Shown in pieces: positions 8,140 through 56,535 of a DNA stretch of 64,000 nucleotides. Position 1 is the first letter of the stretch, and every line of letters begins with the position of its first letter. Below the pieces are notes generated by a model. It did no database searches, was not told the origin of the DNA, and was given only the letters and a program-made list of their open reading frames with translations. The translations under genes were made by a program, and so were the position numbers. The stretch lies in the IMG/VR virus record IMGVR_UViG_3300025759_000058; one strand, given 5' to 3'. This stretch comes from a virus.

Positions 8140-8225
8140 GGCCGGATGATGGAATTGGTAGACATGACAGACTTAAAATCTGTTGAGCCGAAGGGCTCGT
8201 GCGGGTTCGACTCCCGCTCCGGCTA
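8140..8225 (+). tRNA. tRNA-Leu(UAA)
   Basis: Acceptor stem GGCCGGA/TCCGGCT, anticodon arm ACAGA-CTTAAAA-TCTGT, long variable arm, GTTCGAC T-loop. Confidence 0.95.
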
Positions 8226-8242
8226 CCTTATTTTTAATAACA

Positions 8243-8464
8243 ATGGAATTTGAAGTAATTGACTCTAAAGAAGTTTGGTGGGCGGTTACAAATCAATATG
8301 AAGTCGCCTTTAAGGATGGTAACACTTTTAGTTTTCGAGCTGCTGAAGATCCTAACGGTACTGATTTCTATGTGTTATCCGATGATGGCTGGTCGCCTTT
8401 AGAAGATGGTAATGAATATCATGATTCATTTTATGAGGCATGGAGTGAAGGTACATTAGATTAA
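8243..8464 (+). CDS. Hypothetical acidic protein inside the tRNA cluster
   Basis: ATG 8243 (MEFEVIDSK...); the upstream ORF extension overlaps tRNA-Leu. Confidence 0.65.
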   Translation: MEFEVIDSKEVWWAVTNQYEVAFKDGNTFSFRAAEDPNGTDFYVLSDDGWSPLEDGNEYHDSFYEAWSEGTLD

Positions 8465-8470
8465 CAATAT

Positions 8471-8544
8471 GCGCCCGTAGCTCAGCTGGATAGAGCAACA
8501 GCCTTCTAAGCTGTGGGTCATAGGTTCGAATCCTATCGGGCGTA
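8471..8544 (+). tRNA. tRNA-Arg(UCU)
   Basis: GCGCCCG/CGGGCGT acceptor; ACAGC-CTTCTAA-GCTGT. Confidence 0.95.
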
Positions 8545-8548
8545 CGAG

Positions 8549-8561
8549 AGTTCTTTGACAT
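8549..8561 (+). promoter_or_regulatory. boxA-like antitermination element
   Basis: AGTTCTTTGACAT resembles rRNA-operon boxA (E. coli TGCTCTTTAACA) and lies between tRNAs. Confidence 0.45.
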
Positions 8562-8619
8562 CTTGGTTTTAATTCGCTGATGCCGTCACTGCGAAAAATA
8601 AATTATGACGAGCCAATAT

Positions 8620-8693
8620 GGGGACGTAGCTCAATTGGTTAGAGCATCAAGCTTATATCTTGAAGGTCGTAGGTTCAATTCCTACCGTCCCTA
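8620..8693 (+). tRNA. tRNA-Ile(UAU)
   Basis: GGGGACG/CGTCCCT acceptor, discriminator A; TCAAG-CTTATAT-CTTGA gives anticodon TAT. Confidence 0.9.
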
Positions 8694-8697
8694 CACT

Positions 8698-8855
8698 AGT
8701 TGTGTGAGTTGGTTAGGTAGCAGCACAACACCTGGTCGGAGGCTAACCTCTCACGGACCGAGGAAATACTACTTAAGTGTAGCGTTTAGATTATTTTGTA
8801 CGAAACAAATATCCAGTTGGTAGTCTGACACTACAAGTGCCCCTTCAGGGGTGCG
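8698..8855 (+). ncRNA. Candidate structured non-coding RNA between tRNA-Ile and tRNA-Asn
   Basis: Helices GTTGTGT/GCACAAC, GGTTAG/CTAACC, GTGAG/CTCAC, TTAGATTA/TAGTCTGA, GTAG/CTAC and a CCC-TTCA-GGG hairpin. Confidence 0.4.
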
Positions 8856-8860
8856 GATCT

Positions 8861-8934
8861 GATCTCTTAGCTCAGTTGGTTAGAGCATCTGACTGTTAAT
8901 CAGAGGGTCCTGGGTTCGAGCCCCAGAGAGATCG
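8861..8934 (+). tRNA. tRNA-Asn(GUU)
   Basis: GATCTCT/AGAGATC acceptor, G73; TCTGA-CTGTTAA-TCAGA. Confidence 0.93.
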
Positions 8935-8950
8935 CCTGAAGACTGCGTAC

Positions 8951-9025
8951 GCAGTATATAGCTCAATTGGTTAGAGCACTGGTTTGTGGTACCAGAGGTT
9001 ATCAGTTCGATTCTGATTATACTGC
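8951..9025 (+). tRNA. tRNA-His(GUG) with encoded G-1
   Basis: G-CAGTATA/TATACTG-C 8-bp acceptor; CTGGT-TTGTGGT-ACCAG. Confidence 0.92.
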
Positions 9026-9064
9026 CATATTTTATTATAAGTAAACTGTTGAAAAGATGAATGA

Positions 9065-10075: not shown

Positions 10076-11236
10076 ATGCGTAAGTATAATTATTACCGAG
10101 TAGTAGCCGACGACGTTAATGGTTTGGTTTTGATCGACAGTGACGATCGAGTAATCAAATCACATAGTTGTCGTGATATTATGATGGAAAAGGCGTATGC
10201 TGAGGATCAATGTCTTCGCCATGATATGGATGAAGACCGATGGATGCGGCGTCCGAAGAGCGAGTGGGAGAGTGAACTTAAATCAAAAGTAAATGCCATG
10301 CATGAGCAACCAATTGAAGCCGATCCAGTATTGAACTTTATTCATAATGAAGCTGTAGGATTGCGTCCCGAGACATTGATCATGTCAGACTTGAAATGGA
10401 AGTATTTAGTCCGATCTGCAGTACGTGGCAAGAACATTATGATGACCGGCCCTGCGGGTTGTGGTAAAACGATGGCCGCTAAGCAACTAGTGAATGCATT
10501 GGATCGTCCGGATTATTATTTTAATCTTGGCGCGACACAAGATCCTCGAGGGACATTGATTGGTAACACCCACTTCAAGAAAGATGAAGGGACATTGTTT
10601 TCAGAATCGATGTTTGTAAAGGCAATCCAACAAGAAGATGCAGTGATTTTGCTTGATGAGATTAGCCGGGCACACCCAGAGGCTTGGAATATTTTGATGA
10701 CAGTGCTTGATCAAGGTCAGCGGTACCTGCGATTAGATGAACATCCGGATTCGCCAACCATCAAAGTGGCAAAGGGTGTGACGTTTATTGCTACTGCAAA
10801 TATCGGTAATGAATATACGGCGACCAGGGCAATGGACCGAGCGTTAGTTGATCGTTTCGTAATTATTGAAATGGATACATTGACTATGGAACAAGAATCG
10901 GCATTGCTGAAGATGTTGCATCCGCGCTTAGATCAGAGCCATGCAGATAACATTGCAGAAATTGCATCAATGACCAGACGAGAAGTACGTAGTGAGTCAC
11001 CTCGGATCAGCAATTCATTGAGTACACGTATTAGTGTAGAGATGGCCGGATTGATGGAGGATGGATTTTCATTAGCCGAATCGGCAGAGGTATGTGTCTA
11101 TCCATTCTTTGATGAAGAAGGAGGTGTAGATTCAGAACGTACATATATCAAGCAAATTGTTCAGAAGTATGCTGATACCAATGCTGAAGAAGATATCTTC
11201 AATACACAGGCAGAGACAGCAAATAATCCATTCTAA
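10076..11236 (+). CDS. MoxR-family (CbbQ/NirQ/CobS-like) AAA+ ATPase
   Basis: Walker A GPAGCGKT, Walker B ILLDEISR, ATAN sensor and DRALVDRF arginine finger. Confidence 0.9.
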   Translation: MRKYNYYRVVADDVNGLVLIDSDDRVIKSHSCRDIMMEKAYAEDQCLRHDMDEDRWMRRPKSEWESELKSKVNAMHEQPIEADPVLNFIHNEAVGLRPETLIMSDLKWKYLVRSAVRGKNIMMTGPAGCGKTMAAKQLVNALDRPDYYFNLGATQDPRGTLIGNTHFKKDEGTLFSESMFVKAIQQEDAVILLDEISRAHPEAWNILMTVLDQGQRYLRLDEHPDSPTIKVAKGVTFIATANIGNEYTATRAMDRALVDRFVIIEMDTLTMEQESALLKMLHPRLDQSHADNIAEIASMTRREVRSESPRISNSLSTRISVEMAGLMEDGFSLAESAEVCVYPFFDEEGGVDSERTYIKQIVQKYADTNAEEDIFNTQAETANNPF

Positions 11237-11246
11237 TTTAGGTGAT

Positions 11247-11280
11247 GGGGCAGCGGGTAATGCCGGCCCCTTTTTTATTT
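11247..11280 (+). terminator. Intrinsic terminator
   Basis: GGGGC...GCCCC hairpin followed by a T-run. Confidence 0.7.
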
Positions 11281-11286
11281 TTAATC

Positions 11287-11712
11287 ATGCAAATTGATAG
11301 ATATACTGATAAAGGGTTTATACGTTACGCGGAAATGCGGTCTGATGAAACTGGTAAATATCGACAAGGAATTGTAGTTAATAAACTTCTCACAAATATG
11401 GACTGTCCCGGTGTCTATGTATTATGTAACTGTACGGATGGGTCCGTTGAGAAGATTGGCGAGACGGCCGATTTCGAAGCACGTATGCGTATGTATGTAT
11501 CAATAGTTAATACTACAAACAATAGAGTACGTAATCAAGTCAAATTCAGCGGCCTAGACGTATATGTTTATCCAACACCTGTAGTATCTGAAATCGTCAT
11601 GGGGCATAAATGTTTAACTAGCTTTCAGAAGGATTTAGAGAAATATTTATTGATGGAGTTCAGGAAAGAAAATGACGGCCGGTTACCATTACTTAATGCA
11701 TGTAATCGGTAA
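11287..11712 (+). CDS. GIY-YIG nuclease-like protein
   Basis: PGVYVL...EKIGETADFEARMRMY...LEKYLL...PLLN. Confidence 0.6.
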   Translation: MQIDRYTDKGFIRYAEMRSDETGKYRQGIVVNKLLTNMDCPGVYVLCNCTDGSVEKIGETADFEARMRMYVSIVNTTNNRVRNQVKFSGLDVYVYPTPVVSEIVMGHKCLTSFQKDLEKYLLMEFRKENDGRLPLLNACNR

Positions 11713-11729
11713 ACTTTTTTTACAAAAGA

Positions 11730-11761
11730 TTAGGTTTCGAAATAGTTATTTCTTATCTTTA
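11730..11761 (+). promoter_or_regulatory. Early promoter (-33/-7)
   Basis: TTAGGTTTC...TATCTTTA. Confidence 0.75.
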
Positions 11762-11764
11762 GAT

Positions 11765-13822
11765 ATGAAGAAAAAGGTAAATAAAATGTCAAAGAGTGCT
11801 TCAAGCTTTTGGTTGGATGAAGATTTTCTTGATAATCATGGTCAGGATAAAAAAGGAAAGGATCCAATCAAATTGGCAGCATATCGTAAAGCAGTTGCAA
11901 ACTTTGTACGTATTGTAACGGGTGAGGATATTAAGGTTAAGTTTACGCAGAACGGTAAAAGTTATACGGACGGCAAAGCTGTTACTATTTCGGCTACATT
12001 AGATGATAAGAAATTTGATTCGGCTGTAGGTTTAGCTTTGCATGAGGGTTCGCATATCAAATTGACGGATTTTAATGTCGTGCGTATGATAGATGATTTC
12101 ATCCAACGTAAGGACGATTATGTGTTGGAGTATAAGCAAAAATATCAGTTAGAAGATCGATGGATGGTTAGTAACAAAATTGGTGTAACGTTACGTGATC
12201 TTCTTAATATCGTCGAAGACCGACGTATCGACAACTTTGTATATAAGTCAGCTCCCGGCTACCGCGGGTATTATCAAGCATTGTATGATAAATATTTTAA
12301 TTCAACCATTATTGATAAAGGTCTTGAATCGGACGAGTATCGTACAGAGGAGTGGGAGTCGTATATGTTCCGTATTATTAATATTACCAATCCTAAACGA
12401 GATTTAAATGCATTGAAGAGTCTTCGTACGGTATGGGATATAATGGATCTTGCAAATGTCGATCGACTTAAAAGCACGGCCGATGCATTGAATGTTGCAT
12501 GGGAGATCTTTAAAGCCGTTGAAGAATCAATTGAAGTAGTAGAAAATAAAGCTTCAGATAGCCAGCCAGATTCGGATCAGATACAAGAACAGCAATCCTA
12601 TGGCAACTCGGCAGGCACCGGAACGTCCGGAACTTCAAATGAAGATGATACTGAAGATGGTGATGATGATGGAGAATCGGCTGATGGTAGTGAAGTAGAA
12701 GCATCGCCAGGTAATATTAACGGAGGGTCTATGCCAGATGTTGAGCTTGAGCCTTTAAGTGCTAAAGAACATGATCGTCTGCAACGAGCAATTCATCAGC
12801 AAAAAGATTTTCTGAATGGTCATCTTAAGAAGACCGGTCTTAGTAAAAAGAATCTACGTGAAGTAGAAGCTTTGGAAGCAGCGTCAGTTGACGAGCGAGA
12901 AGTTTCATATACGAAGCAGTCTTATTACGGCGATACAATTCAAAAGCAAAAGGTTGTTGTCATTAAAGATATTTCAAAAGAAATGATTGATAACCTAAGA
13001 TGCGATATGTGGTCTGAATGGGGAGTAAATGATCGTCTTGAATGGGTGAATGAAGGTATCATATTTGGTACTGCATTGGGTAAGAAGTTGAAAGTGCGTG
13101 ATGATGAGAAGTCGACTAAATACAATCGTCTTCGTTCCGGCCGAATTGATAAGCGAATGATTGCAGCTGCAGGTTATGGTGCCGAAGGTATCTTTGAGAA
13201 GATTGAGACATTTGCATATCGCCCGGGCATGATTCATATTTCAATTGACAATAGCGGATCGATGAGCGGCCATAAATTCCGTAAAACAATTGTGAGTGCA
13301 ACTGCAATTGCAAAGGCTTGTAGTATGATTGATAATATGGAATGTGTTATTAGTTTTCGATCGACAGCAACGATCGGTGATCAAAGTTATCATCAGGCAT
13401 TACCGACGATTGTTATTGCATATGATAGTCGCCGAGATAGCATCATGAAGATGCGAACCATTATGCCATTCATGAATGTATGTGGCGGCACGCCAGAAGG
13501 CCTATGTTTTGATGCCGTTATGAAAGAAATTCTTGACGGTTCAAATGGTAAAGATGCATATTTTGTTAACTTCTCCGATGGTCAGCCATATTGTGGTAAC
13601 TACCATGGTGTAGCCGCATATACACATACCAAGAAGCAAGTTGATAAGATGGTTAATAATAATATCAAAGTTATTAGCTATTTTATTACAGAGAGCCGTT
13701 CATCATACGGCCACGATGAGGATGTATTTAAAACAATGTATGGTAAAGATGCATCATTCATCGATGTAACAAAAATGCGTGAAGTTGCCGGCAGTATTAA
13801 TAAGAAGTTTTTGCAAGTATAA
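11765..13822 (+). CDS. vWA-domain protein with an N-terminal HExxH module (CobT/NorD-like MoxR partner)
   Basis: LHEGSH and NIVEDRRID, an acidic linker, MIDAS DNSGSM, GGTP and FSDGQP. Start is 11765 or 11786. Confidence 0.85.
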   Translation: MKKKVNKMSKSASSFWLDEDFLDNHGQDKKGKDPIKLAAYRKAVANFVRIVTGEDIKVKFTQNGKSYTDGKAVTISATLDDKKFDSAVGLALHEGSHIKLTDFNVVRMIDDFIQRKDDYVLEYKQKYQLEDRWMVSNKIGVTLRDLLNIVEDRRIDNFVYKSAPGYRGYYQALYDKYFNSTIIDKGLESDEYRTEEWESYMFRIINITNPKRDLNALKSLRTVWDIMDLANVDRLKSTADALNVAWEIFKAVEESIEVVENKASDSQPDSDQIQEQQSYGNSAGTGTSGTSNEDDTEDGDDDGESADGSEVEASPGNINGGSMPDVELEPLSAKEHDRLQRAIHQQKDFLNGHLKKTGLSKKNLREVEALEAASVDEREVSYTKQSYYGDTIQKQKVVVIKDISKEMIDNLRCDMWSEWGVNDRLEWVNEGIIFGTALGKKLKVRDDEKSTKYNRLRSGRIDKRMIAAAGYGAEGIFEKIETFAYRPGMIHISIDNSGSMSGHKFRKTIVSATAIAKACSMIDNMECVISFRSTATIGDQSYHQALPTIVIAYDSRRDSIMKMRTIMPFMNVCGGTPEGLCFDAVMKEILDGSNGKDAYFVNFSDGQPYCGNYHGVAAYTHTKKQVDKMVNNNIKVISYFITESRSSYGHDEDVFKTMYGKDASFIDVTKMREVAGSINKKFLQV

Positions 13823-22962: not shown

Positions 22963-23238
22963 TATATAAGAGCGCTATATATATAGAGATACCATACCGA
23001 ACCAGGGTGGATCAGGGGCATACCTAGCAATACCTGGGGCAAGCACCCCTATATACCCCAAAAGCAGCCCAAAACCGCCCTATATAGGGGAGTATACCGG
23101 TTAACCTTAACATACCAGGTGCTACCGGTGCTCTGGGTGGCCTTAATCTAATTTCTCTTGTGAACAACGCTTTTTGCCTATAGCCCCTGGTCTGTATAGT
23201 TAGAGGCTATGCCTCCATGCCCCTAGGCATGCTCGAGC
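22963..23238. other. GC-rich palindromic non-coding element (candidate terminus/pac or origin)
   Basis: Inverted repeat CCCCTATATA (23046-55) / TATATAGGGG (23081-90), repeated ATACC/CCAGG motifs, no ORF. Confidence 0.4.
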
Positions 23239-23272
23239 ATATTTATATTTAGTTAACAAAAGGACATTACAT

Positions 23273-23869: not shown

Positions 23870-24035
23870 CATGAAGCATTCCGAATTACGAGCAATGGAC
23901 GCACTCAATGGCAAACGGATTGCCGGCCGTGCATTTAAGTATTCGGATACCACACAATTGTATCGGATTACTAAGCCGAAGCCACACGATGGGGGCATGG
24001 CTAGCTGATAAAGGCTTTAAAGTACAACTCGAATC

Positions 24036-40917: not shown

Positions 40918-41193
40918 ATGAGTATAAACAATAGACATTCTGTTGATCAGCAAAAGGTTCGTCGTTATGGACGTCATTACGGTTCAATTGATTTTGAATG
41001 TAATCAATCAATCGACGCAAATTTGTTTCAAAAATCACCGGAGCGTCCGGTCATTGGAACATTTATGATTGATAATAAATCATTTGATCTTACATGGGAC
41101 GAATTGGAACTTATCGAAGAAACGATGAAGACAGCACGTGAGACGACCATGAAGCGTTATCGTTTAGGAATGATGGGGAGATTGAGCAGATAA
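40918..41193 (+). CDS. Hypothetical protein
   Basis: 91 aa ORF. Confidence 0.65.
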   Translation: MSINNRHSVDQQKVRRYGRHYGSIDFECNQSIDANLFQKSPERPVIGTFMIDNKSFDLTWDELELIEETMKTARETTMKRYRLGMMGRLSR

Positions 41194-41423
41194 TGGGGTT
41201 TCATCGTCGCAGTATTAACGTTGATCTAATTAGATCAGAATATTTGCGGCTAGGTTATGAAGGAATCGATAGACTTTTTAAGAAAGGAAGATATGATGTA
41301 TTATCATTAAGTGATGCAAAGTCAGTTAAAATTCATGATATCTTCCTTTCTTACTTTGATTCTGAGCTAGATAAATGCAAGCATATTCATAAGATTCTAT
41401 TTGATGAGATTAACGAAATCTAA
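41193..41423 (+). CDS. Hypothetical protein
   Basis: 76 aa, MGFHRR. Confidence 0.6.
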   Translation: MGFHRRSINVDLIRSEYLRLGYEGIDRLFKKGRYDVLSLSDAKSVKIHDIFLSYFDSELDKCKHIHKILFDEINEI

Positions 41424-41900: not shown

Positions 41901-41932
41901 CTTGGCATTTAACGTTAAAGTTATTATATTTA
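41901..41932 (+). promoter_or_regulatory. Early promoter of the hsp20 gene
   Basis: CTTGG...TATATTTA, 24-nt register; overlaps an ATATTTAT motif. Confidence 0.6.
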
Positions 41933-41940
41933 TATCTGAA

Positions 41941-42445
41941 AAGGGTTGATACTGCGGGTCGGCCATTTTTTAAAAATTATTGTTTAACCATCTAAGGAGG
42001 TAAAAATTATGAGTAGATATCCACTACAATCATTCGATCTCTTGTTTAGAGATATGTTTAATGCAAATTCAGATTTTGCATCAGCTTTTCAAACCAAAGT
42101 TCATCACCCAGTAGATATTCGAGAGACCGATGAAGGTCTTTTAATTGAGATTGCAGTCGTAGGAGCTGAGCGTGATGATATTGAGCTTTTGGCTCAAGGC
42201 GATACTATTAGGGTCGCATATCGCAAAGATAATCGTGAAGAAGACGATTATATCCAACGTGGGATTGCAAAACGCAATTTCGATTTAGGCTGGCGCTTGG
42301 CTAGTAAGTTTGTCGTTGAGCAGACAACAGCAACTCTTGATAAAGGGCTGTTGACTATCCATGTTCCATTTGTTAAAGAAGAAAAACCAGTTAAGGTTAC
42401 GATTAAGTAATTAGTTACGTAGGCCGGCCCGCAAATCAGCCTCTT
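41941..42445 (+). repeat. Inverted repeat bracketing the hsp20 gene (5'UTR/3'UTR stem)
   Basis: TGCGGGTCGGCC (41953-64) pairs with GGCCGGCCCGCA (42422-33); GGGTTGAT (41943-50) pairs with ATCAGCCT (42435-42). Confidence 0.8.
42009..42410 (+). CDS. Small heat-shock protein (Hsp20/alpha-crystallin)
   Basis: HPVDIRE...IEIAVVG...YIQRGIAKRNF...ATLDKGLLTIHVP. Confidence 0.9.
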   Translation: MSRYPLQSFDLLFRDMFNANSDFASAFQTKVHHPVDIRETDEGLLIEIAVVGAERDDIELLAQGDTIRVAYRKDNREEDDYIQRGIAKRNFDLGWRLASKFVVEQTTATLDKGLLTIHVPFVKEEKPVKVTIK

Positions 42446-42475: not shown

Positions 42476-42670
42476 TTGAAGCAATACCAGTATATAGATT
42501 ACCAGAACCAACTCTTTATTGTGGAACGTGTTATACGTAGAAGCCATTTTAAAAAAGAATTGGATAGTGTATTGTTAAAGAAATGGACACATTGTGATAC
42601 GATATTACAAAAAGATGACCATTTCTATTTTTGCAATTTAGTGCCTGATGCGGAAATAATTTCCGAATAA
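42476..42670 (+). CDS. Hypothetical protein
   Basis: 64 aa, TTG start. Confidence 0.6.
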   Translation: MKQYQYIDYQNQLFIVERVIRRSHFKKELDSVLLKKWTHCDTILQKDDHFYFCNLVPDAEIISE

Positions 42671-42838: not shown

Positions 42839-43309
42839 ATGACGATGAAAAATAAAGTTGTAATCTTCGATCTCGATGGCACATTGGCATTGATCGACGA
42901 TCGTCGCAAATTAGCGACAAAGCCAGATGGCAAAATGGATTGGGATAAATTTTTCGATCCTACAAATATTGATTTAGATTTGCCTAACGATCCAGTAATT
43001 CAAATGGCACAATCGCTTAAAGATTCTGGTAAAACTATTGTCATCTTTTCCGGAAGGAGTAAGGCGACCAAGGATGCTACTCGAAATTGGCTGAATCGCC
43101 ACAATGTACCATTTGATATTCTTAAGATGCGTCCGACCGGGCACCCATGGGCATTTATGCCAGATGATAAACTTAAGCAAGGATGGCTTGATGATTTGTT
43201 TACCGATAAGTCAGATATTCTTTGTGTATTTGATGACCGACAAAAGGTAGTAGATATGTGGCGAGCAAATGACATTACTTGTATGCAAGTTGCACCAGGA
43301 CAATTTTGA
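42839..43309 (+). CDS. HAD-family phosphatase (polynucleotide kinase 3'-phosphatase domain-like)
   Basis: FDLDGTLA, FSGR, LKMR, FDDR..VV.MWR and QVAPG. Confidence 0.85.
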   Translation: MTMKNKVVIFDLDGTLALIDDRRKLATKPDGKMDWDKFFDPTNIDLDLPNDPVIQMAQSLKDSGKTIVIFSGRSKATKDATRNWLNRHNVPFDILKMRPTGHPWAFMPDDKLKQGWLDDLFTDKSDILCVFDDRQKVVDMWRANDITCMQVAPGQF

Positions 43310-43338: not shown

Positions 43339-44391
43339 ATGAGTGATTTAGTACAAGTCGGTTATGCATGTGTTAACATGACATTAACAAGCCGGCCCAA
43401 AAAGTTAGGCGGCCGTGTTACAACGTCTCGCGGTTGTCGCAAAGCGACATGGTATCCTACGCGTGATTTGCATAAGTTAGGTGAGCTAGCATTAGCCAAT
43501 GCCAACGACTTGCTTATGTATCTCCGATGGAACGAAGAAAACAATATTCGCTTGTTTCGGCTAGGTTCTGAGCTTGTTCCATGGCACGACCAATTCGAGC
43601 TACATGAGCTACCGCAGTATGACGAGTTAGCAGATACGTTACGTATTGCCGGCAACTATGCCAAGCAGCATGGCCATCGTATTACGACACATCCCGGTCC
43701 GTTCCACGTATTAGGTTCGCCTACTCAAGCGGTCGCGGACAAGACTATCATCGGCCTCGAGCGCCATTCTGAGATATTCGATCTTATGGGGTTTGACCCG
43801 TCACCGCATAACAAGATCAATATTCATATCGGCGGCGCTTATGGTGACCATGAGACTACGGCCAAGCGATGGATTGCCAATTGGCAACGCCTATCCGATG
43901 CATGCAAGGCCCGACTTGTTATCGAGAATGACGACAAACCCAGTATGTACAGCGTTGTGCAGTTGTACGAGTTATTCCATCGAGAGATTGGTATTCCAAT
44001 TACGTTTGACTATTTTCACCATACATTCCATACTGGTGGTTTATCCGAACGCGAAGCGTTAGAGTTAGCCGGCTCGACTTGGCCGGACGATGTCGTGCAG
44101 TGTACTCACTATTCCGAATCACGACGTGATGAGCAGACATTAGCTTTGCAACGTGTATGTGAGTCCCATGGCATTAGCATTGACGATATGCCCAATTGGC
44201 CGACATTTGCCAAGATGCATGAGCAGTTTCAGAAGATCAAGGCTCAAGCGCATTCCGATTACATTACCAAGCCTATCGACAGCTACGGCAATCGCATCGA
44301 CGTCGTTGTCGAAGCCAAAGCCAAAGAGTTAGCCGTTTTACGGTATAAGAATGATGTAATTAAAGAAAATTCTAGATTGTTAGTTTCTTAA
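43339..44391 (+). CDS. uvsE: UV-damage endonuclease UvsE/UVDE
   Basis: GYACVN, FRLGS, HPGPF, IHIGG, IENDDK, FDYFHH, HSDY and VEAKAKE. Confidence 0.92.
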   Translation: MSDLVQVGYACVNMTLTSRPKKLGGRVTTSRGCRKATWYPTRDLHKLGELALANANDLLMYLRWNEENNIRLFRLGSELVPWHDQFELHELPQYDELADTLRIAGNYAKQHGHRITTHPGPFHVLGSPTQAVADKTIIGLERHSEIFDLMGFDPSPHNKINIHIGGAYGDHETTAKRWIANWQRLSDACKARLVIENDDKPSMYSVVQLYELFHREIGIPITFDYFHHTFHTGGLSEREALELAGSTWPDDVVQCTHYSESRRDEQTLALQRVCESHGISIDDMPNWPTFAKMHEQFQKIKAQAHSDYITKPIDSYGNRIDVVVEAKAKELAVLRYKNDVIKENSRLLVS

Positions 44392-50653: not shown

Positions 50654-51196
50654 ATGGCACGTAGTGTTTATAGATATGAACCAATCAATGAGACGCCAGA
50701 TAAAGGTGTAGGTATACTCTTACCTTTAAATAGACCAGTTACCGGACGACTAAAAGAAGAGACATCGTATGATGCTGCTGGAACAAATGGTAAAGGCGTA
50801 TTTGTACAATCGTATACAACAGAGGAACAGTCTATAAGTAATTTACGTAATTTATTACATACCCTTAAGGGTGAACGTTTCATGCAACCTAATTTTGGGA
50901 CTAGAATTCGTGAGTTTTTATTTCGTCAGTCGTATGAATCCTTAGCATCCGACTTATCAGAATCTATCACTAATGATATTAATACATGGATTCCGTATAT
51001 TATACTCGACGCTGTCGATGTGGTTACCAATGAACATAGAATAGATATCAGAATACGTTTTCGTACAACACGTAACGGTGCTAATTTAATCATTAATGTG
51101 TTGGCTCAAGAAAATGCAATTATAGTATCAGAACCAATTCAAGATACATATTCGCCGGCATCGAGTAGATTAGTACAGGTATATGGAGGACTTTAA
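50654..51196 (+). CDS. Baseplate wedge subunit, gp25-like
   Basis: NLRNLL.T.KGERFMQPNFGT.I..FLF...WIPYI. Confidence 0.85.
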   Translation: MARSVYRYEPINETPDKGVGILLPLNRPVTGRLKEETSYDAAGTNGKGVFVQSYTTEEQSISNLRNLLHTLKGERFMQPNFGTRIREFLFRQSYESLASDLSESITNDINTWIPYIILDAVDVVTNEHRIDIRIRFRTTRNGANLIINVLAQENAIIVSEPIQDTYSPASSRLVQVYGGL

Positions 51197-53073
51197 TGAC
51201 ATTAGTTAAAAAAGATGTAAAATATCTTAATAAAGATTTTGCGCAGTTTAGACAAAATTTAATAAACTTCGCACGTACGTATTATCCCAATACCTACAAT
51301 GATTTTAATGAATCGTCGCCTGGTATGATGTTTATGGAAATGGCATCATATGTCGGCGATGTATTGTCATTTTACACTGATACTTCTTATAGAGAGTCAT
51401 TACTTAATAGCGCTAAAGAAGATGCTAATGTATTGCAGTTATCCCAAATGTTGGGATATAAGCCAAAATTAAATTCACCCGCGTTAGTCGATTTAGATGT
51501 GTATCAACTTGTGCCGGCACTTGGTTCTGGAGCATCTGCACGTCCAGATGAAAGATATACGTTATCAATCCAACCTGGAATGACAGTGACCGGTAATGAT
51601 AATGTCACATTTCGTACATTATCGACTGTAGACTTTTCATCATCAAGTTCTATAGATCCATTAGATATTTCTGTATATGAGATTGATAGTAATGGTAATG
51701 TACAATACTACTTATACAAAAAATCCGTTCCGGCAATATCTGGCGAGGTTAAGACGGCTACATTTACATTCGGTGATCCTAAAATATATGATAAAATTGC
51801 ATTAACAGATACTAATGTATTAGATATAATCAGTGTTACTAGCGACGAAGGCTCGACATGGCATCAAGTCGATTATTTAGCGCAAGACACTATATTCGAA
51901 GATATCGAGAACATTCCATTTAATGATTCAACCCTATCTTCATTTAGAAGTGCTGTGCCGTATATTTTAAAATTACGACGTACACCTAGAAGGTTTGTAA
52001 CTAGACTTAGAGAAGACTTACGTACCGAAATACAATTTGGTGCTGGTATAAGTTCCGATGCTGATGAAGAATTAATTCCTAATCCTAAGAACATTGGTAG
52101 CGGCTTAGAGTATTTAAATCGAACTACAAACAATAACATAGATCCATCGAACTTTTTATATACTAGTACATATGGATTGGCTCCAAATAATGAGACACTA
52201 ACTGTTACATATTCGGTAGGTGGCGGCACAAAAGAGAATGTAAGTGTTAATTCATTGACAACAATTTTATCTGTACCATATAATACTGCAACAGAAATTT
52301 ACGGCGTTGATTTGACTGATACAAAAGCATCTCTGGCTGTAAACAATCCTGTACCGGCACGTGGCGGAAAAGCTAAAGATGATATCGAAAATATACGTCA
52401 ATCTGCCATAGCAGCATTTGCTGCTCAAAATAGAGCTATTACACGTGAAGATTATATTTCTAGATGTTATGCAATGCCTTCAAAATACGGATCAATTGCA
52501 AAGGCATATATTGTCAGTGATACCCAAATTAATACATCAGATAATGAATATCCACGCGAGACTATATCTAATCCATTAGCTCTAAATTTATATACGTTAG
52601 GTTATGACGTCGCCGGTAACTTTACACCGCTTAATACTGCAGTAAAACAAAATTTACGTACATACTTATCTAATTATAGAATGTTAACGGATGCAATTAA
52701 TATTAAAACTGCATATGTGATTAATATTGGCGTAGAGTTTGAAATTATACCTAGGCCTAATGCCAATAGTAATGAAGTGTTAATACGTTGTATAAATAGG
52801 CTTAAGACGTTGTTAAATAATGAACGTATGCAGATTAACGGTAGTTTAAACATATCTAATTTAATGACGGAACTTGATAAAATTGATGGTGTTCAAAGTG
52901 TACCTAAATTAGATATAATAAATTTATATGATGCTAATAAAGGTTATAACAATAATGTATATAGCATTAATGGTGCTACTAAAAATGGTATTGTATATCC
53001 GAGTTTAGATCCTTGCATTTTTGAAGTTAAGTATCCCGATTCTGATATTAAAGGAAGAATAGTAAAGGCATAA
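51196..53073 (+). CDS. Baseplate wedge subunit, gp6/BplJ-like
   Basis: DF...RQNL..F, SYVGDVLSFY, LGYKP, GG...ENIR and QNRAITREDY. Confidence 0.85.
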   Translation: MTLVKKDVKYLNKDFAQFRQNLINFARTYYPNTYNDFNESSPGMMFMEMASYVGDVLSFYTDTSYRESLLNSAKEDANVLQLSQMLGYKPKLNSPALVDLDVYQLVPALGSGASARPDERYTLSIQPGMTVTGNDNVTFRTLSTVDFSSSSSIDPLDISVYEIDSNGNVQYYLYKKSVPAISGEVKTATFTFGDPKIYDKIALTDTNVLDIISVTSDEGSTWHQVDYLAQDTIFEDIENIPFNDSTLSSFRSAVPYILKLRRTPRRFVTRLREDLRTEIQFGAGISSDADEELIPNPKNIGSGLEYLNRTTNNNIDPSNFLYTSTYGLAPNNETLTVTYSVGGGTKENVSVNSLTTILSVPYNTATEIYGVDLTDTKASLAVNNPVPARGGKAKDDIENIRQSAIAAFAAQNRAITREDYISRCYAMPSKYGSIAKAYIVSDTQINTSDNEYPRETISNPLALNLYTLGYDVAGNFTPLNTAVKQNLRTYLSNYRMLTDAINIKTAYVINIGVEFEIIPRPNANSNEVLIRCINRLKTLLNNERMQINGSLNISNLMTELDKIDGVQSVPKLDIINLYDANKGYNNNVYSINGATKNGIVYPSLDPCIFEVKYPDSDIKGRIVKA

Positions 53074-53074
53074 T

Positions 53075-54244
53075 ATGTATAAACTTTATTACATAGAACG
53101 TGATACGACTATATATGAAAAATATCCAGAACGTAATACTGGATTAGATTCTATACTTGAATTAACAAAGATTGCATGTGGTTCTCGCGATGATATGGGC
53201 AATGTGTTAAGTAACACATATAATTCACGTGTATTGTTAGATTTAGGAAATAATGTAACGACGTTACGTACCGATATTAACAATGGTACTATACCTGCAT
53301 TTGCATCTCATCCATTATCGTCATCTGCATATTTAACATTACGATTGGCTAATGCAAATTCTGTACCGGCAAATTTTTCGATTGAAGCATATCCAATTTC
53401 GGAATCTTGGACAATGGGCACTGGTACATTTGATTCTGACCCAGAATCACGTGTAGGTGTATCATGGTACTATCGTAATGGGACTGATGTCAGCTTACCA
53501 TCTGCTTGGAATACTGGGTCTGCTCAATCAGCCGGCCAAGAAAGTGTTACTAATTTAAATGGCGGCGGCACATGGCTAACTAGTTCTGCAGATAATAGCA
53601 TAAGTTATCGAGCTAGTCAATCATTTAGTAATGCGGAAACTATAGATGTCCGTTTAAATATCACTCCGATAATGAATGCATGGATATCTAATGATATTTT
53701 AAATCATGGTTTAATTATCAAATGGCCAACGGCTGTTGAAATATCTGGCGACTTAGCTGGTAGCTTAAAATTCTTTGGTCGAGAATCAAATACGATCTAC
53801 GTACCTAGACTTGAAGTAGCTTATGACAATTCTATCTTATCTGGAACGGGTTCGTTTACTGAAATAAACAGCGATATATATGTTCCGTACTTTACAAATT
53901 TGCGATCTGCATATCATGAATCTGAGAAAGCTAAGCTACGTATTCAGACGCGACCAGAATTCCCGACACGTGCATATCAAACGTCTTCAGTATATTTAGA
54001 TAATTATAGATTGCCGACATCATCGTATTGGAGTGTTTTAGATTCTGTTACTGACGAAACTATCATTCCGTTTGATACGGGTTCTACGCGCATATCATGT
54101 GATTCGTCCGGTAACTATATTAATATAGATTTTAATTCGTTCTTAACGGAACGGTATTATAAGTTAGTACTACGTATTGAGCGCGAAGGTGGTGAAGATG
54201 TACAAATTCATGATAACAAATATTACTTTAGAGTAGATAGATGA
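53075..54244 (+). CDS. Virion structural protein (DNRLRE-like beta fold)
   Basis: DTTIY...NTGLD..LE, SRVLL, W.MGTG, NHGLIIK and PRLEV; baseplate context. Confidence 0.6.
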   Translation: MYKLYYIERDTTIYEKYPERNTGLDSILELTKIACGSRDDMGNVLSNTYNSRVLLDLGNNVTTLRTDINNGTIPAFASHPLSSSAYLTLRLANANSVPANFSIEAYPISESWTMGTGTFDSDPESRVGVSWYYRNGTDVSLPSAWNTGSAQSAGQESVTNLNGGGTWLTSSADNSISYRASQSFSNAETIDVRLNITPIMNAWISNDILNHGLIIKWPTAVEISGDLAGSLKFFGRESNTIYVPRLEVAYDNSILSGTGSFTEINSDIYVPYFTNLRSAYHESEKAKLRIQTRPEFPTRAYQTSSVYLDNYRLPTSSYWSVLDSVTDETIIPFDTGSTRISCDSSGNYINIDFNSFLTERYYKLVLRIEREGGEDVQIHDNKYYFRVDR

Positions 54245-56535
54245 TGGCAACAAACCGATTTACAGCAGCTAATAAACCAGAACATACATCCCCTACTCTA
54301 GATAGCCTTTTACTTGAGATAATGCGTGATGAGTTTCCTGATGACCCCAATTTTAAAGCCGGTATTCTGACTGAAGAACTTGACCCTAATCAAGAACTTA
54401 TCGATCAAGTTACATTACCTGAATTCGAACCTACTTCACGTAACTCGAGACAAGTATTACAAGTATCGCCATCTGTTGTACAACATACGAATTATCAACT
54501 TACAAAATCAATTCCGACTATTGACGAAGACATATTAGATGATTTGTTGGACGAAGAATGGAATTTCTTTTTAGATGAAGAAGTACAATATGAACCGGGC
54601 GTATCTGGATTATTTCTAATCCATCCAGACCAAATTAAAGAACCAGTAGATTATCATGATGCATATATTCAAGCTGGGCCACAAAACCTTGGTTCATTTG
54701 ATTCTGTGAATGATATTTTCTGCGTATATTTTATTCGTGATAATGTTGCATATCCTATACCTAATTACAAAACGTTAGAGGTCATGTTAGTAGAGCGTAG
54801 ATTGACGTACCGCGATATAACAATAGCTGATAATACTCAACTACAGCAGTTCGATTTATCTATGGATGGTAAAACTACTATTATAGATGAAGTAGTATCG
54901 CCGGAAGCGGAATTTGCAGCCCGTAGTTTATTTGATAGAAGTGCAGAATGGAATTTCCGTATTAGATATGAAAGTGGATATAGACCATTATCGCCGTTCA
55001 CGCGTGACCCAGGTGAATATATCGATCCTGTATCAAAAGGGTATTTTAATGCAGTTTATAGTAAGCAGACGTATCAGGAATCGTTAAGAGCTAGATTTGA
55101 AGGTAAAATGGTGATTTTATCATGGCCGCCGGCATCATTGACGGACGAAGAATTTAATTCAGAAGTTATACAAAACGACAATAACCAATTAAACGATTTA
55201 GTCAACGGCGTACGTATTATGACGAACGGTTATTGGAAACAGGTTACGGATGGCGAAGTATTTCGGTCATATGCATATGTAAATGATTTAGATGTGAGCG
55301 GGTATCAAGACCCTAACGGCAGATATGGCCGCGCCGGATATATTAACTTGTTAATACAAAATGGTGGCATAACTGTATTGTCGGGTGAAGATGTTGTAGA
55401 TGCTAGAGAAGGCTTAGATCCAGTATGGAATGAATTTGCACATATCATTGAAGCAGACCGAATGGATATAGATGAGTTTAAAACTTATATTGATACGTAC
55501 AGCAACAATCCATTTGATATTGAATATTTACTGCCATATGAACCACGTGGCAGTGTTAAATACTATGACCAAGATACATTAAATATTTTACGTGAGCAGT
55601 CCATAGAACAAAGTTTAATAAATAATTTAGTTGATACGATTAATATTAGATATGAGGAAATTGCAAGTATCGTAGCTAATGCAACCGTTATGCTAAACAG
55701 TACACAAAACTCTGCAATAACTGTTCTAGATCAGATTGAAAATGATATAACTCGAATAGGCGATGCAAGTGATAGATGGCAATTTATCAAGTTTAAAAAT
55801 AACGGCAACATAAAAGTTAAAGGTACTGAACACTCTTTATTTAGATTAGTTGAAACAACGCAACGTATAACTTCTAACTTAACAACATCGCAAGAAGATG
55901 AGATTGCAGGCGAATGGTCACGTGTTGTTAATGCAGACTCAGTTACGTTAAGTGAAGTAGGTTCGAATTCAGGTAATGTAAAAAACGCTCAGACGTTTGA
56001 ACTTCCTAGAGACGGCATTGGACGTGATAAACCATCAATGAAGAGTAGTAGTTATATACGTGCTAGTATATTAAATGCATTTTATTATAAATGGGATATT
56101 GCCGGCGACAGTGTTAACACTGGAACACGCGCGAACGTGCGCGAATTGGCAGAAGATATCGATAACACTCGGTCAGCAACTGCGAATGAATTTCAATTAT
56201 TAAGTAGCCAATTTGATGATATTACAAATGCAATTGCTACTAGTGATACAGTAGAACAATTCCAAGAAATTTTAAATACATTAAATGCAATAGATAATGC
56301 ATACATAGAATTTAATAATTCAGTAGACGATGTCAATGATTTTATTTTTACTTTAAATTCAAATACTAAAGCATATATTAATAACGTATATGAATCTATA
56401 CAACTTCTTCGTAAAAGAATATATAATAACGTCGGTAATAGTAACAAGTTTGCTATTAAATGGCCAGCAACGGTGATTGCAATAATAGAAAAATACTCAC
56501 CCGGTAAAACGTATACAAATTACCAGAAGTCTTAA
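54241..56535 (+). CDS. Large putative virion protein
   Basis: 764 aa in the baseplate operon, with a C-terminal coiled coil. Confidence 0.6.
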   Translation: MMATNRFTAANKPEHTSPTLDSLLLEIMRDEFPDDPNFKAGILTEELDPNQELIDQVTLPEFEPTSRNSRQVLQVSPSVVQHTNYQLTKSIPTIDEDILDDLLDEEWNFFLDEEVQYEPGVSGLFLIHPDQIKEPVDYHDAYIQAGPQNLGSFDSVNDIFCVYFIRDNVAYPIPNYKTLEVMLVERRLTYRDITIADNTQLQQFDLSMDGKTTIIDEVVSPEAEFAARSLFDRSAEWNFRIRYESGYRPLSPFTRDPGEYIDPVSKGYFNAVYSKQTYQESLRARFEGKMVILSWPPASLTDEEFNSEVIQNDNNQLNDLVNGVRIMTNGYWKQVTDGEVFRSYAYVNDLDVSGYQDPNGRYGRAGYINLLIQNGGITVLSGEDVVDAREGLDPVWNEFAHIIEADRMDIDEFKTYIDTYSNNPFDIEYLLPYEPRGSVKYYDQDTLNILREQSIEQSLINNLVDTINIRYEEIASIVANATVMLNSTQNSAITVLDQIENDITRIGDASDRWQFIKFKNNGNIKVKGTEHSLFRLVETTQRITSNLTTSQEDEIAGEWSRVVNADSVTLSEVGSNSGNVKNAQTFELPRDGIGRDKPSMKSSSYIRASILNAFYYKWDIAGDSVNTGTRANVRELAEDIDNTRSATANEFQLLSSQFDDITNAIATSDTVEQFQEILNTLNAIDNAYIEFNNSVDDVNDFIFTLNSNTKAYINNVYESIQLLRKRIYNNVGNSNKFAIKWPATVIAIIEKYSPGKTYTNYQKS

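Follow-up and report, generated by a model that had tools for sequence, protein, structure and literature searches.

Functional pairing between the 5' and 3' untranslated regions (UTRs) of bacterial mRNAs is, to our knowledge, described in only a handful of cases (hbs, icaR, hilD, and hok), which are mostly short or weak and few of which have phylogenetic support. In the hok mRNAs of plasmid R1 and its relatives, the fbi-tac pairing of the 5' and 3' ends closes a short message, shows coupled covariations, and controls both stability and translation. In the early mRNAs of bacteriophage T7, processing by RNase III leaves stabilising stems at the mRNA ends. In the B. subtilis hbs mRNA, a 14-bp pairing of the two UTRs restricts cleavage by RNase Y and stabilises the transcript; single and compensatory mutants showed that it limits endonuclease cleavage and stabilises the primary transcripts (PMC5737220). 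The same paper cites the 5'/3'-UTR pairings of icaR in S. aureus and of hilD. Here we describe an hsp20 gene whose mRNA is predicted to be closed by a long-range helix between its 5' and 3' UTRs, found in 64,000 nt of DNA from an uncultured virus (IMG/VR record IMGVR_UViG_3300025759_000058; this whole stretch is called the window below, and all coordinates refer to its + strand). The pairing outlasts the complete turnover of the arm sequences, of which about 15 families were found.

The enclosed gene is an open reading frame (ORF) of 133 aa (42009-42410, + strand) with an HSP20/alpha-crystallin domain (PF00011, E 3.9e-9; 37 bits against a cut-off of 20.8, residues 36-130). Two complementary arms, one in its leader and one in its trailer, bracket it on the + strand at a distance of 457 nt from each other and form 12 bp of inner and 8 bp of outer helix around a small AC/A internal loop. 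This arrangement had been proposed in the first-pass annotation, and the sequence and the repeat finder agree on it. The 5' side consists of the outer arm GGGTTGAT (41943-41950), to which A41941 and A41942 may add weak A-U pairs, an unpaired AC (41951-41952), and the inner arm TGCGGGTCGGCC (41953-41964), which is identified by the repeat finder, RNAalifold, and compensatory changes alike. On the 3' side, an 11-nt spacer TTAGTTACGTA (42411-42421) separates the stop codon from the inner arm GGCCGGCCCGCA (42422-42433), which is followed by an unpaired A (42434) and the outer arm ATCAGCCT (42435-42442), and C42443-U42445 may extend the latter past a bulged U. The repeat finder recovers the inner pair as 12 nt with 92% complementarity. 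The non-Watson-Crick pairs are U41959.G42427, U41946.G42439, and G41943.U42442, and all three are G.U on the + strand and would be C.A on the - strand. Between the 5' arm and a small hairpin around the Shine-Dalgarno (SD) sequence lies an A/U-rich single-stranded leader (41965-41986, + strand), variable in sequence among relatives and unpaired in the minimum-free-energy fold as well as in the centroid fold. From the inner end of the helix to the SD sequence there are 29 nt, and the loop of about 450 nt takes in the leader, the small hairpin, and the whole ORF. The octamer TTAGTTAC (42411-42418), which directly follows the stop codon, is kept between two clades with Hsp20 proteins only 47% identical, and the spacer sequence next to it varies (alignment columns 506-513).

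Both hbs and the phage gene have a small monocistronic mRNA (<600 nt) with a strong SD sequence that codes for an abundant small protein, and in both a 5'UTR segment pairs just after the ORF. The hbs duplex, however, is a 14-bp, A/U-rich pairing of -19 kcal/mol that is internal to the 5' UTR and upstream of a normal terminator, whereas the phage hsp20 helix has 14-28 bp with a GC-rich core and -25 to -40 kcal/mol, starts at approximately the first nucleotide of the predicted transcript, and stands in the place of the terminator. Moreover, it belongs to a phage gene and is conserved with covariation over hundreds of relatives. The hok and icaR mRNAs are kept untranslated by pairings that mask a translational activator or the SD sequence, whereas in phage hsp20 both the SD sequence and the AUG are well inside the loop and outside the helix; neither an antisense RNA nor any sign of a toxin is present.

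Cultured phages have no DNA-level similarity to the locus, and orthologues were obtained by protein-guided searches in IMG/VR, JGI metagenomes, and a large assembly collection (89-46% amino acid identity). Given 22 distinct sequences aligned with MAFFT, RNAalifold recovers the long-range inner helix de novo, as the principal feature of its prediction (columns 38-48/522-532). A pair census of the same alignment finds 81.8% of the cells paired, against 25-53% in slid registers. Changes on both sides are observed in 13 of the 20 pairs, none of 500 shuffles reached the covariation score, and the approximately 15 arm families are all complementary; the counts for the outer arm are lowered because MAFFT shifts this arm by one column in some clades. 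Duplexes computed for each sequence have 17-25 bp and -26 to -40 kcal/mol, and all of these orthologues retain the helix with compensatory changes. The first-pass annotation had staked its proposal beforehand on conservation and covariation of the arms among relatives, and on this point RNAalifold, the pair census, and the compensatory changes all bear it out.

The changes can be followed in individual loci. In L002 the inner-arm U.G has become U-A, and in L143 the outermost G.U has become C-G; L016 has two double changes (TGCGGGCTAGCC/GGCTAGCCCGCA), and L025 (TGCGGGTCGATCTA/TAGATCGGCCCGCA) an outer-arm A-U replaced by G-C. The L014 clade pairs AGATTGG-TA-CTGCGGACCA with TGGTCCGCAG-TCAATCT, one pair of which has gone from A-U to G-C in L027, and the L018 and L035 clades pair TACGGGCCGTT with AACGGCCCGTA and TACGGGTCAGT with ACTGACCCGTA, respectively. 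The bulge or loop at the junction of the inner and outer parts is kept in most clades with the CUGCGG core, and L052 is fully paired there. A single sequence, L017 (ENA ERZ27313225 k141_1160755, 913 nt), has the 3' arm but an unrelated sequence in place of the 5' arm, and was excluded. Its Hsp20 protein is identical to that of L016, its breakpoint falls exactly at the inner end of the arm, and its 3' end carries an Illumina adapter; chimeric assembly, or an artefact of the library at the inverted repeat, is the probable cause.

The same trait was found far beyond these orthologues. A profile built from diverse hsp20 members retrieved 551 relatives in IMG/VR, of which 80 loci were kept, 53 of them with distinct flanks of sufficient length. 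In 52 of these 53, the 5' leader forms a compact duplex of -23 to -38 kcal/mol with the first nucleotides after the stop codon; the sole exception, L069, has a mis-called start codon (an ATG inside the 5' arm), and the helix is present there too. Together with the earlier loci, the helix occurs in 75 of 75 distinct loci sampled. It ranges from 14 to 28 bp, the shortest examples (14-15 bp) being L072 and L105. Its inner part is rich in GC and its outer part in A/U, the A lying in the 5' arm and the U in the 3' arm, and a small bulge or loop is usually present. Between the start of the 5' arm and the ATG there are 49-95 nt, and between the stop codon and the 3' arm only about 1-23 nt, without a hairpin. 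The arm sequences themselves fall into about 15 unrelated families (e.g., GACCCTAGGGCAC, CACGGTAGGTCTC, ATACAGGCAGGTT, ATACCGGATGGGTAT, and AATCAACCCCAGAGAG). Thus L052, with an Hsp20 43-50% identical to six other aligned members, has ATCACTGCGGG-TTGTA paired with TACAACCCCGCAGTGAT, and L057 (38% identity) has a perfect 15-bp helix of the unrelated sequence GTTCACAGGCAGAAC. The flanks of one gene pair at -30.5 +/- 4.2 kcal/mol, compared with -13.8 +/- 4.0 for flanks combined between families.

The relatives are all metagenomic contigs and their promoter calls are consensus matches. As the loci are phylogenetically related, counting them overstates independence, and fairer units are the approximately 15 arm families and the unique contexts of mismatches. 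Two further hsp20 genes, L048 and L049 (35-36% identity, other contexts), which lie outside these counts, have no convincing helix (-13 and -16 kcal/mol). Likewise, the hsp20 genes of Pelagibacter phage HTVC115P and Synechococcus phages S-H38 (two records) and MA10 are without the helix; their proteins are 27-33% identical, and ordinary local terminator hairpins with U-runs follow the genes. Since the Hsp20 proteins found in cultured phages by protein searches are only distant and their genes helix-less, no cultured model system was found. L057 (CAZOXV010000004.1, 19.5 kb) is placed in a metagenome-assembled genome labelled as an uncultured Methanosarcinales archaeon, the only match in the genome collection, and is probably a mis-binned viral contig; its hsp20 cassette has two TTGACA-17-TATATT promoters and the panhandle. 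No Rfam family matches the helix. Comparison of these sequences indicates that selection keeps the pairing, and not the sequence of the arms, throughout a large family of hsp20 genes in uncultured phages.

Single-sequence statistics agree with this picture. The duplex energy at the window locus is -39.6 kcal/mol, compared with -21.6 +/- 3.9 for 2000 dinucleotide shuffles of both flanks; the most extreme of these shuffles equals the observed energy, so that the shuffle test by itself gives p of about 1/2000. The hsp20 flanks rank first among the 91 flank pairs of + strand ORFs in the window, and among 12,821 intergenic pairs separated by no more than 3.5 kb no other is as strong as the helix (mean -8.1, standard deviation 3.9). 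In the 514-nt RNA it closes both the minimum-free-energy and the centroid fold (z -4.6). The arms are without good local partners, with z of -0.2 for the 5' UTR alone and +1.3 for the 3' flank alone. A weak, G.U-rich terminator-like local hairpin of seven pairs at 41944-41964 was considered and rejected, its register not being kept in other clades. The helix is not a chance pairing, and the comparative evidence for it is far stronger than the single-sequence statistics.

The other strong intergenic pairs of the window belong to tRNA genes (about 8.5-8.9 kb) or to a GC-rich non-coding stretch near 23 kb, and none of them brackets a gene as cleanly. The latter stretch (22980-23240) is unusually G+C-rich, with runs of C and G, and its segment GGCUAUGCCUCCAU (23205-23218) can pair with 23989-24002, about 770 nt downstream (14 bp, three of them G.U, -32 kcal/mol), which makes it the second-best long-range intergenic pair of the window.

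Inverted repeats that flank a small accessory gene found across many different phage contigs might also be maintained at the DNA level, as ends of a mobile cassette, as invertase or recombinase sites, or as two copies of a protein-binding site, the RNA pairing being incidental; concerted evolution of two site copies could then mimic covariation. A repeat maintained in DNA would yield G.T- and A.C-type mismatches equally. For a mismatch census, the 5' arm was aligned to the reverse complement of the 3' arm with a score blind to the difference between G.U and A.C, and isolated transitions with at least three flanking matches on each side were counted, every sequence context once. On the sense strand, the census gives 11 G.U-type against 1 A.C-type mismatches (binomial p 0.006), a bias unexpected for DNA and pointing to RNA. 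Selection at the RNA level had been read in the first-pass annotation from the three + strand G.U pairs of the window, and the bias proves to generalise across the family. An initial DNA-level census (61 G.U against 38 A.C) mis-scored bulges and A/T-rich extensions and was discarded in favour of this stricter count. The more stable duplex is formed by the sense strand in 49 loci and by the antisense strand in 25, though the loci are not independent.

Other features also argue against a DNA repeat. The bulges are asymmetric, and the arms have exact positions, the 5' arm between promoter box and leader and the 3' arm immediately downstream of the stop codon. The orientation of hsp20 is the same as that of its neighbours and the synteny is constant in every contig with listed neighbours, with no recombinase or transposase domain among the eight neighbouring ORFs scanned. 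Neither an empty site nor a second copy of the arms elsewhere was found: every contig retrieved via the upstream ORF also has hsp20 and the helix, there are no dispersed repeats of the arm motif, its other near-matches in the window fall within coding sequence, and exact-motif matches in IMG/VR beyond two close relatives are chance matches in GC-rich contigs. We regard maintenance at the DNA level as very improbable. The pairing, judged by the mismatch bias and these features, is very probably selected in the sense RNA, and we are similarly confident that the structure is a cis-acting long-range RNA panhandle in the hsp20 sense transcript.

A promoter-like, sigma-70-like site, TTGGCA-17-TATATT, was identified upstream of the helix by a consensus scan (41902-41930, + strand; 10/12, predicted start only). 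The 5' arm begins about 0-6 nt after its predicted start, in agreement with the initial proposal that the arm follows a predicted start by a few nucleotides. Overlapping this site is the box ATATTTATA (41926-41934, + strand), a 9-mer that occurs ten times on the + strand of the window (positions 23239, 23602, 31212, 33436, 37955, 38456, 38692, 41926, 44391, and 59995) and never on the - strand, mostly ahead of ORFs, with start codons typically 10-40 nt further on, and it probably serves this phage group as a promoter element. Of 67 distinct upstream regions, 48 have a box of this type ahead of the helix (at most two mismatches; 20 exact), and the distance from its end to the first paired base is -2 to +8 nt in most of these 48. 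Since the box abuts the first paired base, the helix is predicted to start at about the first transcribed nucleotide. From these promoter-like motifs and the absence of a terminator between the arms, we infer that both arms are on one transcript.

The downstream boundary differs between clades. In many relatives the 3' arm runs directly into a new promoter-like box, and there is no ordinary terminator in between. The window's clade and L052 have a conserved ORF of 64 aa that follows without a promoter. In the window it lies outside the helix at 42476-42670 (+ strand; start codon TTG, ATG in relatives), with no promoter-like box between it and the 3' arm, and in L052 its start codon is inside the 3' arm.

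The order of an A-tract, a GC-rich arm, the gene, another GC-rich arm, and a U-rich tract suggests a long-range intrinsic terminator, in which the 5' arm would stay free until the 3' arm leaves the polymerase, and the GC helix together with the U-tract would release the RNA. T makes up 54% and A 34% of the 10 nt that follow the GC core, though the strand overall is richer in A than in T. Runs of at least four T follow the GC core in 13 of 39 arm variants (e.g., L014 with U7, L071, L114, and L123), the next promoter-like box is often directly after, and the outgroups have a normal terminator at this position. However, about two thirds of the variants are without a usable U-run, including the window (CUCUUAUACC; CTCTTATACC after the stem), L052, L057, L062, and the GGTAGGTCTC family, and the downstream ORF in the window's clade and L052 depends on read-through. 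The definition used for terminator searches requires a loop of 3-8 nt, whereas the loop in the window is 457 nt long and includes the gene; natural terminators with loops of about 450 nt are not known to us. Termination as the principal role of the helix seems to us quite improbable.

We favour a panhandle that would protect or define both ends of the mRNA and make hsp20 a self-contained cassette. Taken as a whole, structure together with function, this is the best explanation, with a probability of about 0.5; the protective function by itself is proposed tentatively, at even odds or slightly less. The helix would tie the ends of the message together, so that the 5' end is hidden from 5'-end-dependent RNases, and its 3' side would block 3' exonucleases or fix the 3' end. 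The outcome would be a long-lived, context-independent, monocistronic hsp20 message, produced from a cassette of promoter, helix, gene, and helix. Translation could proceed because the initiation region is 30-60 nt inside the loop. End protection is favoured by a helix that begins at about +1 of the predicted RNA and by arms that are without good local partners, and the hbs pairing of B. subtilis is a precedent for it that experiments have established. Insulation is favoured by the promoter box directly after the 3' arm without an ordinary terminator in many relatives, and by the helix-less hsp20 genes of cultured phages, which have a local terminator at the place of the 3' arm.

Several observations weigh against end protection. 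Only hsp20 in the window has such a helix, and a general protection would be expected to cover more genes, which hints at a function tied to hsp20. In the window's clade the 64-aa ORF is without its own promoter, so that the primary transcript probably passes the 3' arm, which would then not be the primary 3' end. In L052 the 3' arm lies over the start codon of this ORF, an arrangement that resembles regulation more than simple end protection. A distance of only 3-7 nt between stop codon and 3' arm, as in many clades, means that a terminating ribosome must open part of the helix. Finally, in L057 and L052 the predicted start is 10-20 nt before the 5' arm, and the 5' end may thus be incompletely paired.

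The rivals of end protection are not mutually exclusive. Stabilisation and processing by RNase III, two of the three roles offered in the first-pass annotation, would each fit the anatomy. The same long helix could be cut by the RNase III of the host, which would excise the hsp20 cistron from longer transcripts and either leave a shorter stabilising stem or start decay. In most clades the helix has 17-28 bp, with a loop or bulge between the GC-rich and the A/U-rich parts, a shape typical of classical RNase III substrates such as the T7 R1.1-type sites and the rRNA stems. The stems of 16S and 23S rRNA are similar in that a whole functional RNA is enclosed by a long-range helix, about two turns in length and interrupted by an internal loop. 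In contrast to the rRNA and T7 stems, a protein-coding cistron is enclosed here, and the helices of some clades are too short for typical substrates; those of L072 and L105, at 14-15 bp, are short for the enzyme. The bulge is conserved neither in position nor in size and is absent in L057, L105, and L062. A cut would separate the two cistrons in the window's clade, where the transcript probably runs into the 64-aa ORF, and the L018 clade has only about 18 nt of intergenic space before the 5' arm, making read-through from upstream likely; however, the dedicated promoter-like box right before the 5' arm makes excision on the 5' side unnecessary. Processing by RNase III appears unlikely, though it accommodates the run-on into the 64-aa ORF.

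The restriction of the helix to hsp20 in the window, together with its universality in the sampled hsp20 family, would fit an operator specific to this gene, in which the panhandle and the 5'UTR hairpin are bound by the phage Hsp20 (a hypothetical binding) or switch, so that synthesis tracks unfolded protein or temperature. The hairpin is the second conserved element of the locus. In the window it has the form ACC-A-UC-UAAG-GA-GGU (41987-42001, + strand; -3.1 kcal/mol) and includes the SD sequence AAGGAGG (41994-42000); across the family it consists of a stem, a bulged A, UC/GA, and a tetraloop (UAAG, UUAG, or UUCG), and it holds the SD sequence in many clades. It covaries as well: pair 80-92 is C-G in 15 sequences and U-A in 7. 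Clades without an SD sequence have the hairpin some 17 nt ahead of the ATG, followed by an A-rich leader, and its stems covary there (GCUG/CAGC, GGUG/CACC, GAGU/ACUC, and GACG/CGUC). A precedent exists in E. coli, where IbpA binds the structured 5' UTR of its own mRNA and thereby represses its translation (PMC10474464; bioRxiv 10.1101/2020.04.20.050740). On the other hand, the long helix makes no contact with the SD sequence or the AUG and, at -25 to -40 kcal/mol, is too stable to melt on heat shock. In addition, the complete turnover of the arm sequences excludes a protein that reads sequence, so that only recognition of shape fits. An operator of this kind seems improbable to us.

RNA thermometers are short imperfect local hairpins that include the SD sequence or the AUG and melt at 30-45 C. 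The phage gene is of the same class as those under thermometers such as ROSE, Synechocystis hsp17, and fourU, and its leader has a weak hairpin that holds the SD sequence. The long-range helix, in contrast, excludes the SD sequence, which lies 29 nt beyond its inner end, and at -39.6 kcal/mol in the window is much too stable. A thermometer role of the long helix is unlikely because of this stability and because the ribosome-binding site is outside the helix. The small 5'UTR hairpin is the better candidate for a temperature switch and could be an RNA thermometer or a protein-binding operator.

End protection could also be part of a more elaborate design. The helix brings the stop codon beside the initiation region and thus could act as a prokaryotic closed loop in which ribosomes that have terminated re-initiate on the message they have just read, with one long-range helix serving as both 5' stabiliser and terminator of an autonomous cassette. 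Even a circular mRNA could arise from the juxtaposed ends; a stand-alone PNKP-type HAD phosphatase domain protein, of an end-healing type, is encoded 430 nt downstream (42839-43309; PF25109, E 1.7e-30). Such a design is a long shot.

The window is A/T-rich (34-42% G+C), with its large ORFs all on the + strand. The order common to the hsp20 orthologues is a methyltransferase, small ORFs, an ORF of 130-139 aa, hsp20, an ORF of 64-67 aa, and UvdE; the last, a UV-damage endonuclease (43339-44391; PF03851, E 1.8e-53), follows hsp20 in most relatives. Elsewhere the window encodes a CobS/MoxR-like ATPase, CobT-like proteins, and a T4-type baseplate wedge protein (10076-13822 and 51196-53073), and it has a cluster of five tRNA genes (8140-9026; Leu-TAA, Arg-TCT, Ile-TAT, Asn-GTT, and His-GTG). 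It is part of a large myovirus, and many of its ORFs have no PHROG match. Its longest inverted repeat has arms of 35 nt (97% complementary; 54410-54444/55947-55981, 1502 nt between), both inside a 764-aa ORF (54241-56535). Two genes upstream of hsp20, a hairpin with 24-nt arms (92% complementary, 27-nt loop; 41279-41302/41330-41353) lies inside a 76-aa ORF (41193-41423).

In the full-text literature on phage hsp20, structures flanking it, and hsp20 and cyanophage transcripts, no description of the helix was found, in a coverage that is incomplete and does not prove absence; the phage hsp20 panhandle is apparently previously undescribed. In its mode of action it would belong with hbs, icaR, hilD, and hok, and in shape it resembles the rRNA and T7 stems. 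It is set apart from all of these by the combination of an enclosed protein-coding gene, a strong GC-rich helix from the 5' end, the replacement of the terminator, the location around a phage accessory gene, and a universal presence in the sampled family with repeated turnover.

With about 15 replacements of the arm sequence and the pairing kept in every sampled member, the natural covariation is close to the clearest that could be expected of an mRNA structure. The family offers a clean natural system for asking what closure of an mRNA does in bacteria, whether it acts on stability, end formation, or processing, or couples termination with initiation. Structures that are missed by local-fold methods and by Rfam can be found when the gene flanks of metagenomic phage families are scanned for long-range pairs that covary. 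The design is simple, and its two arms of 15-25 nt are a possible portable insulator or stabiliser for synthetic genes. For the phages themselves, the finding suggests that they move hsp20 as a self-contained expression module.

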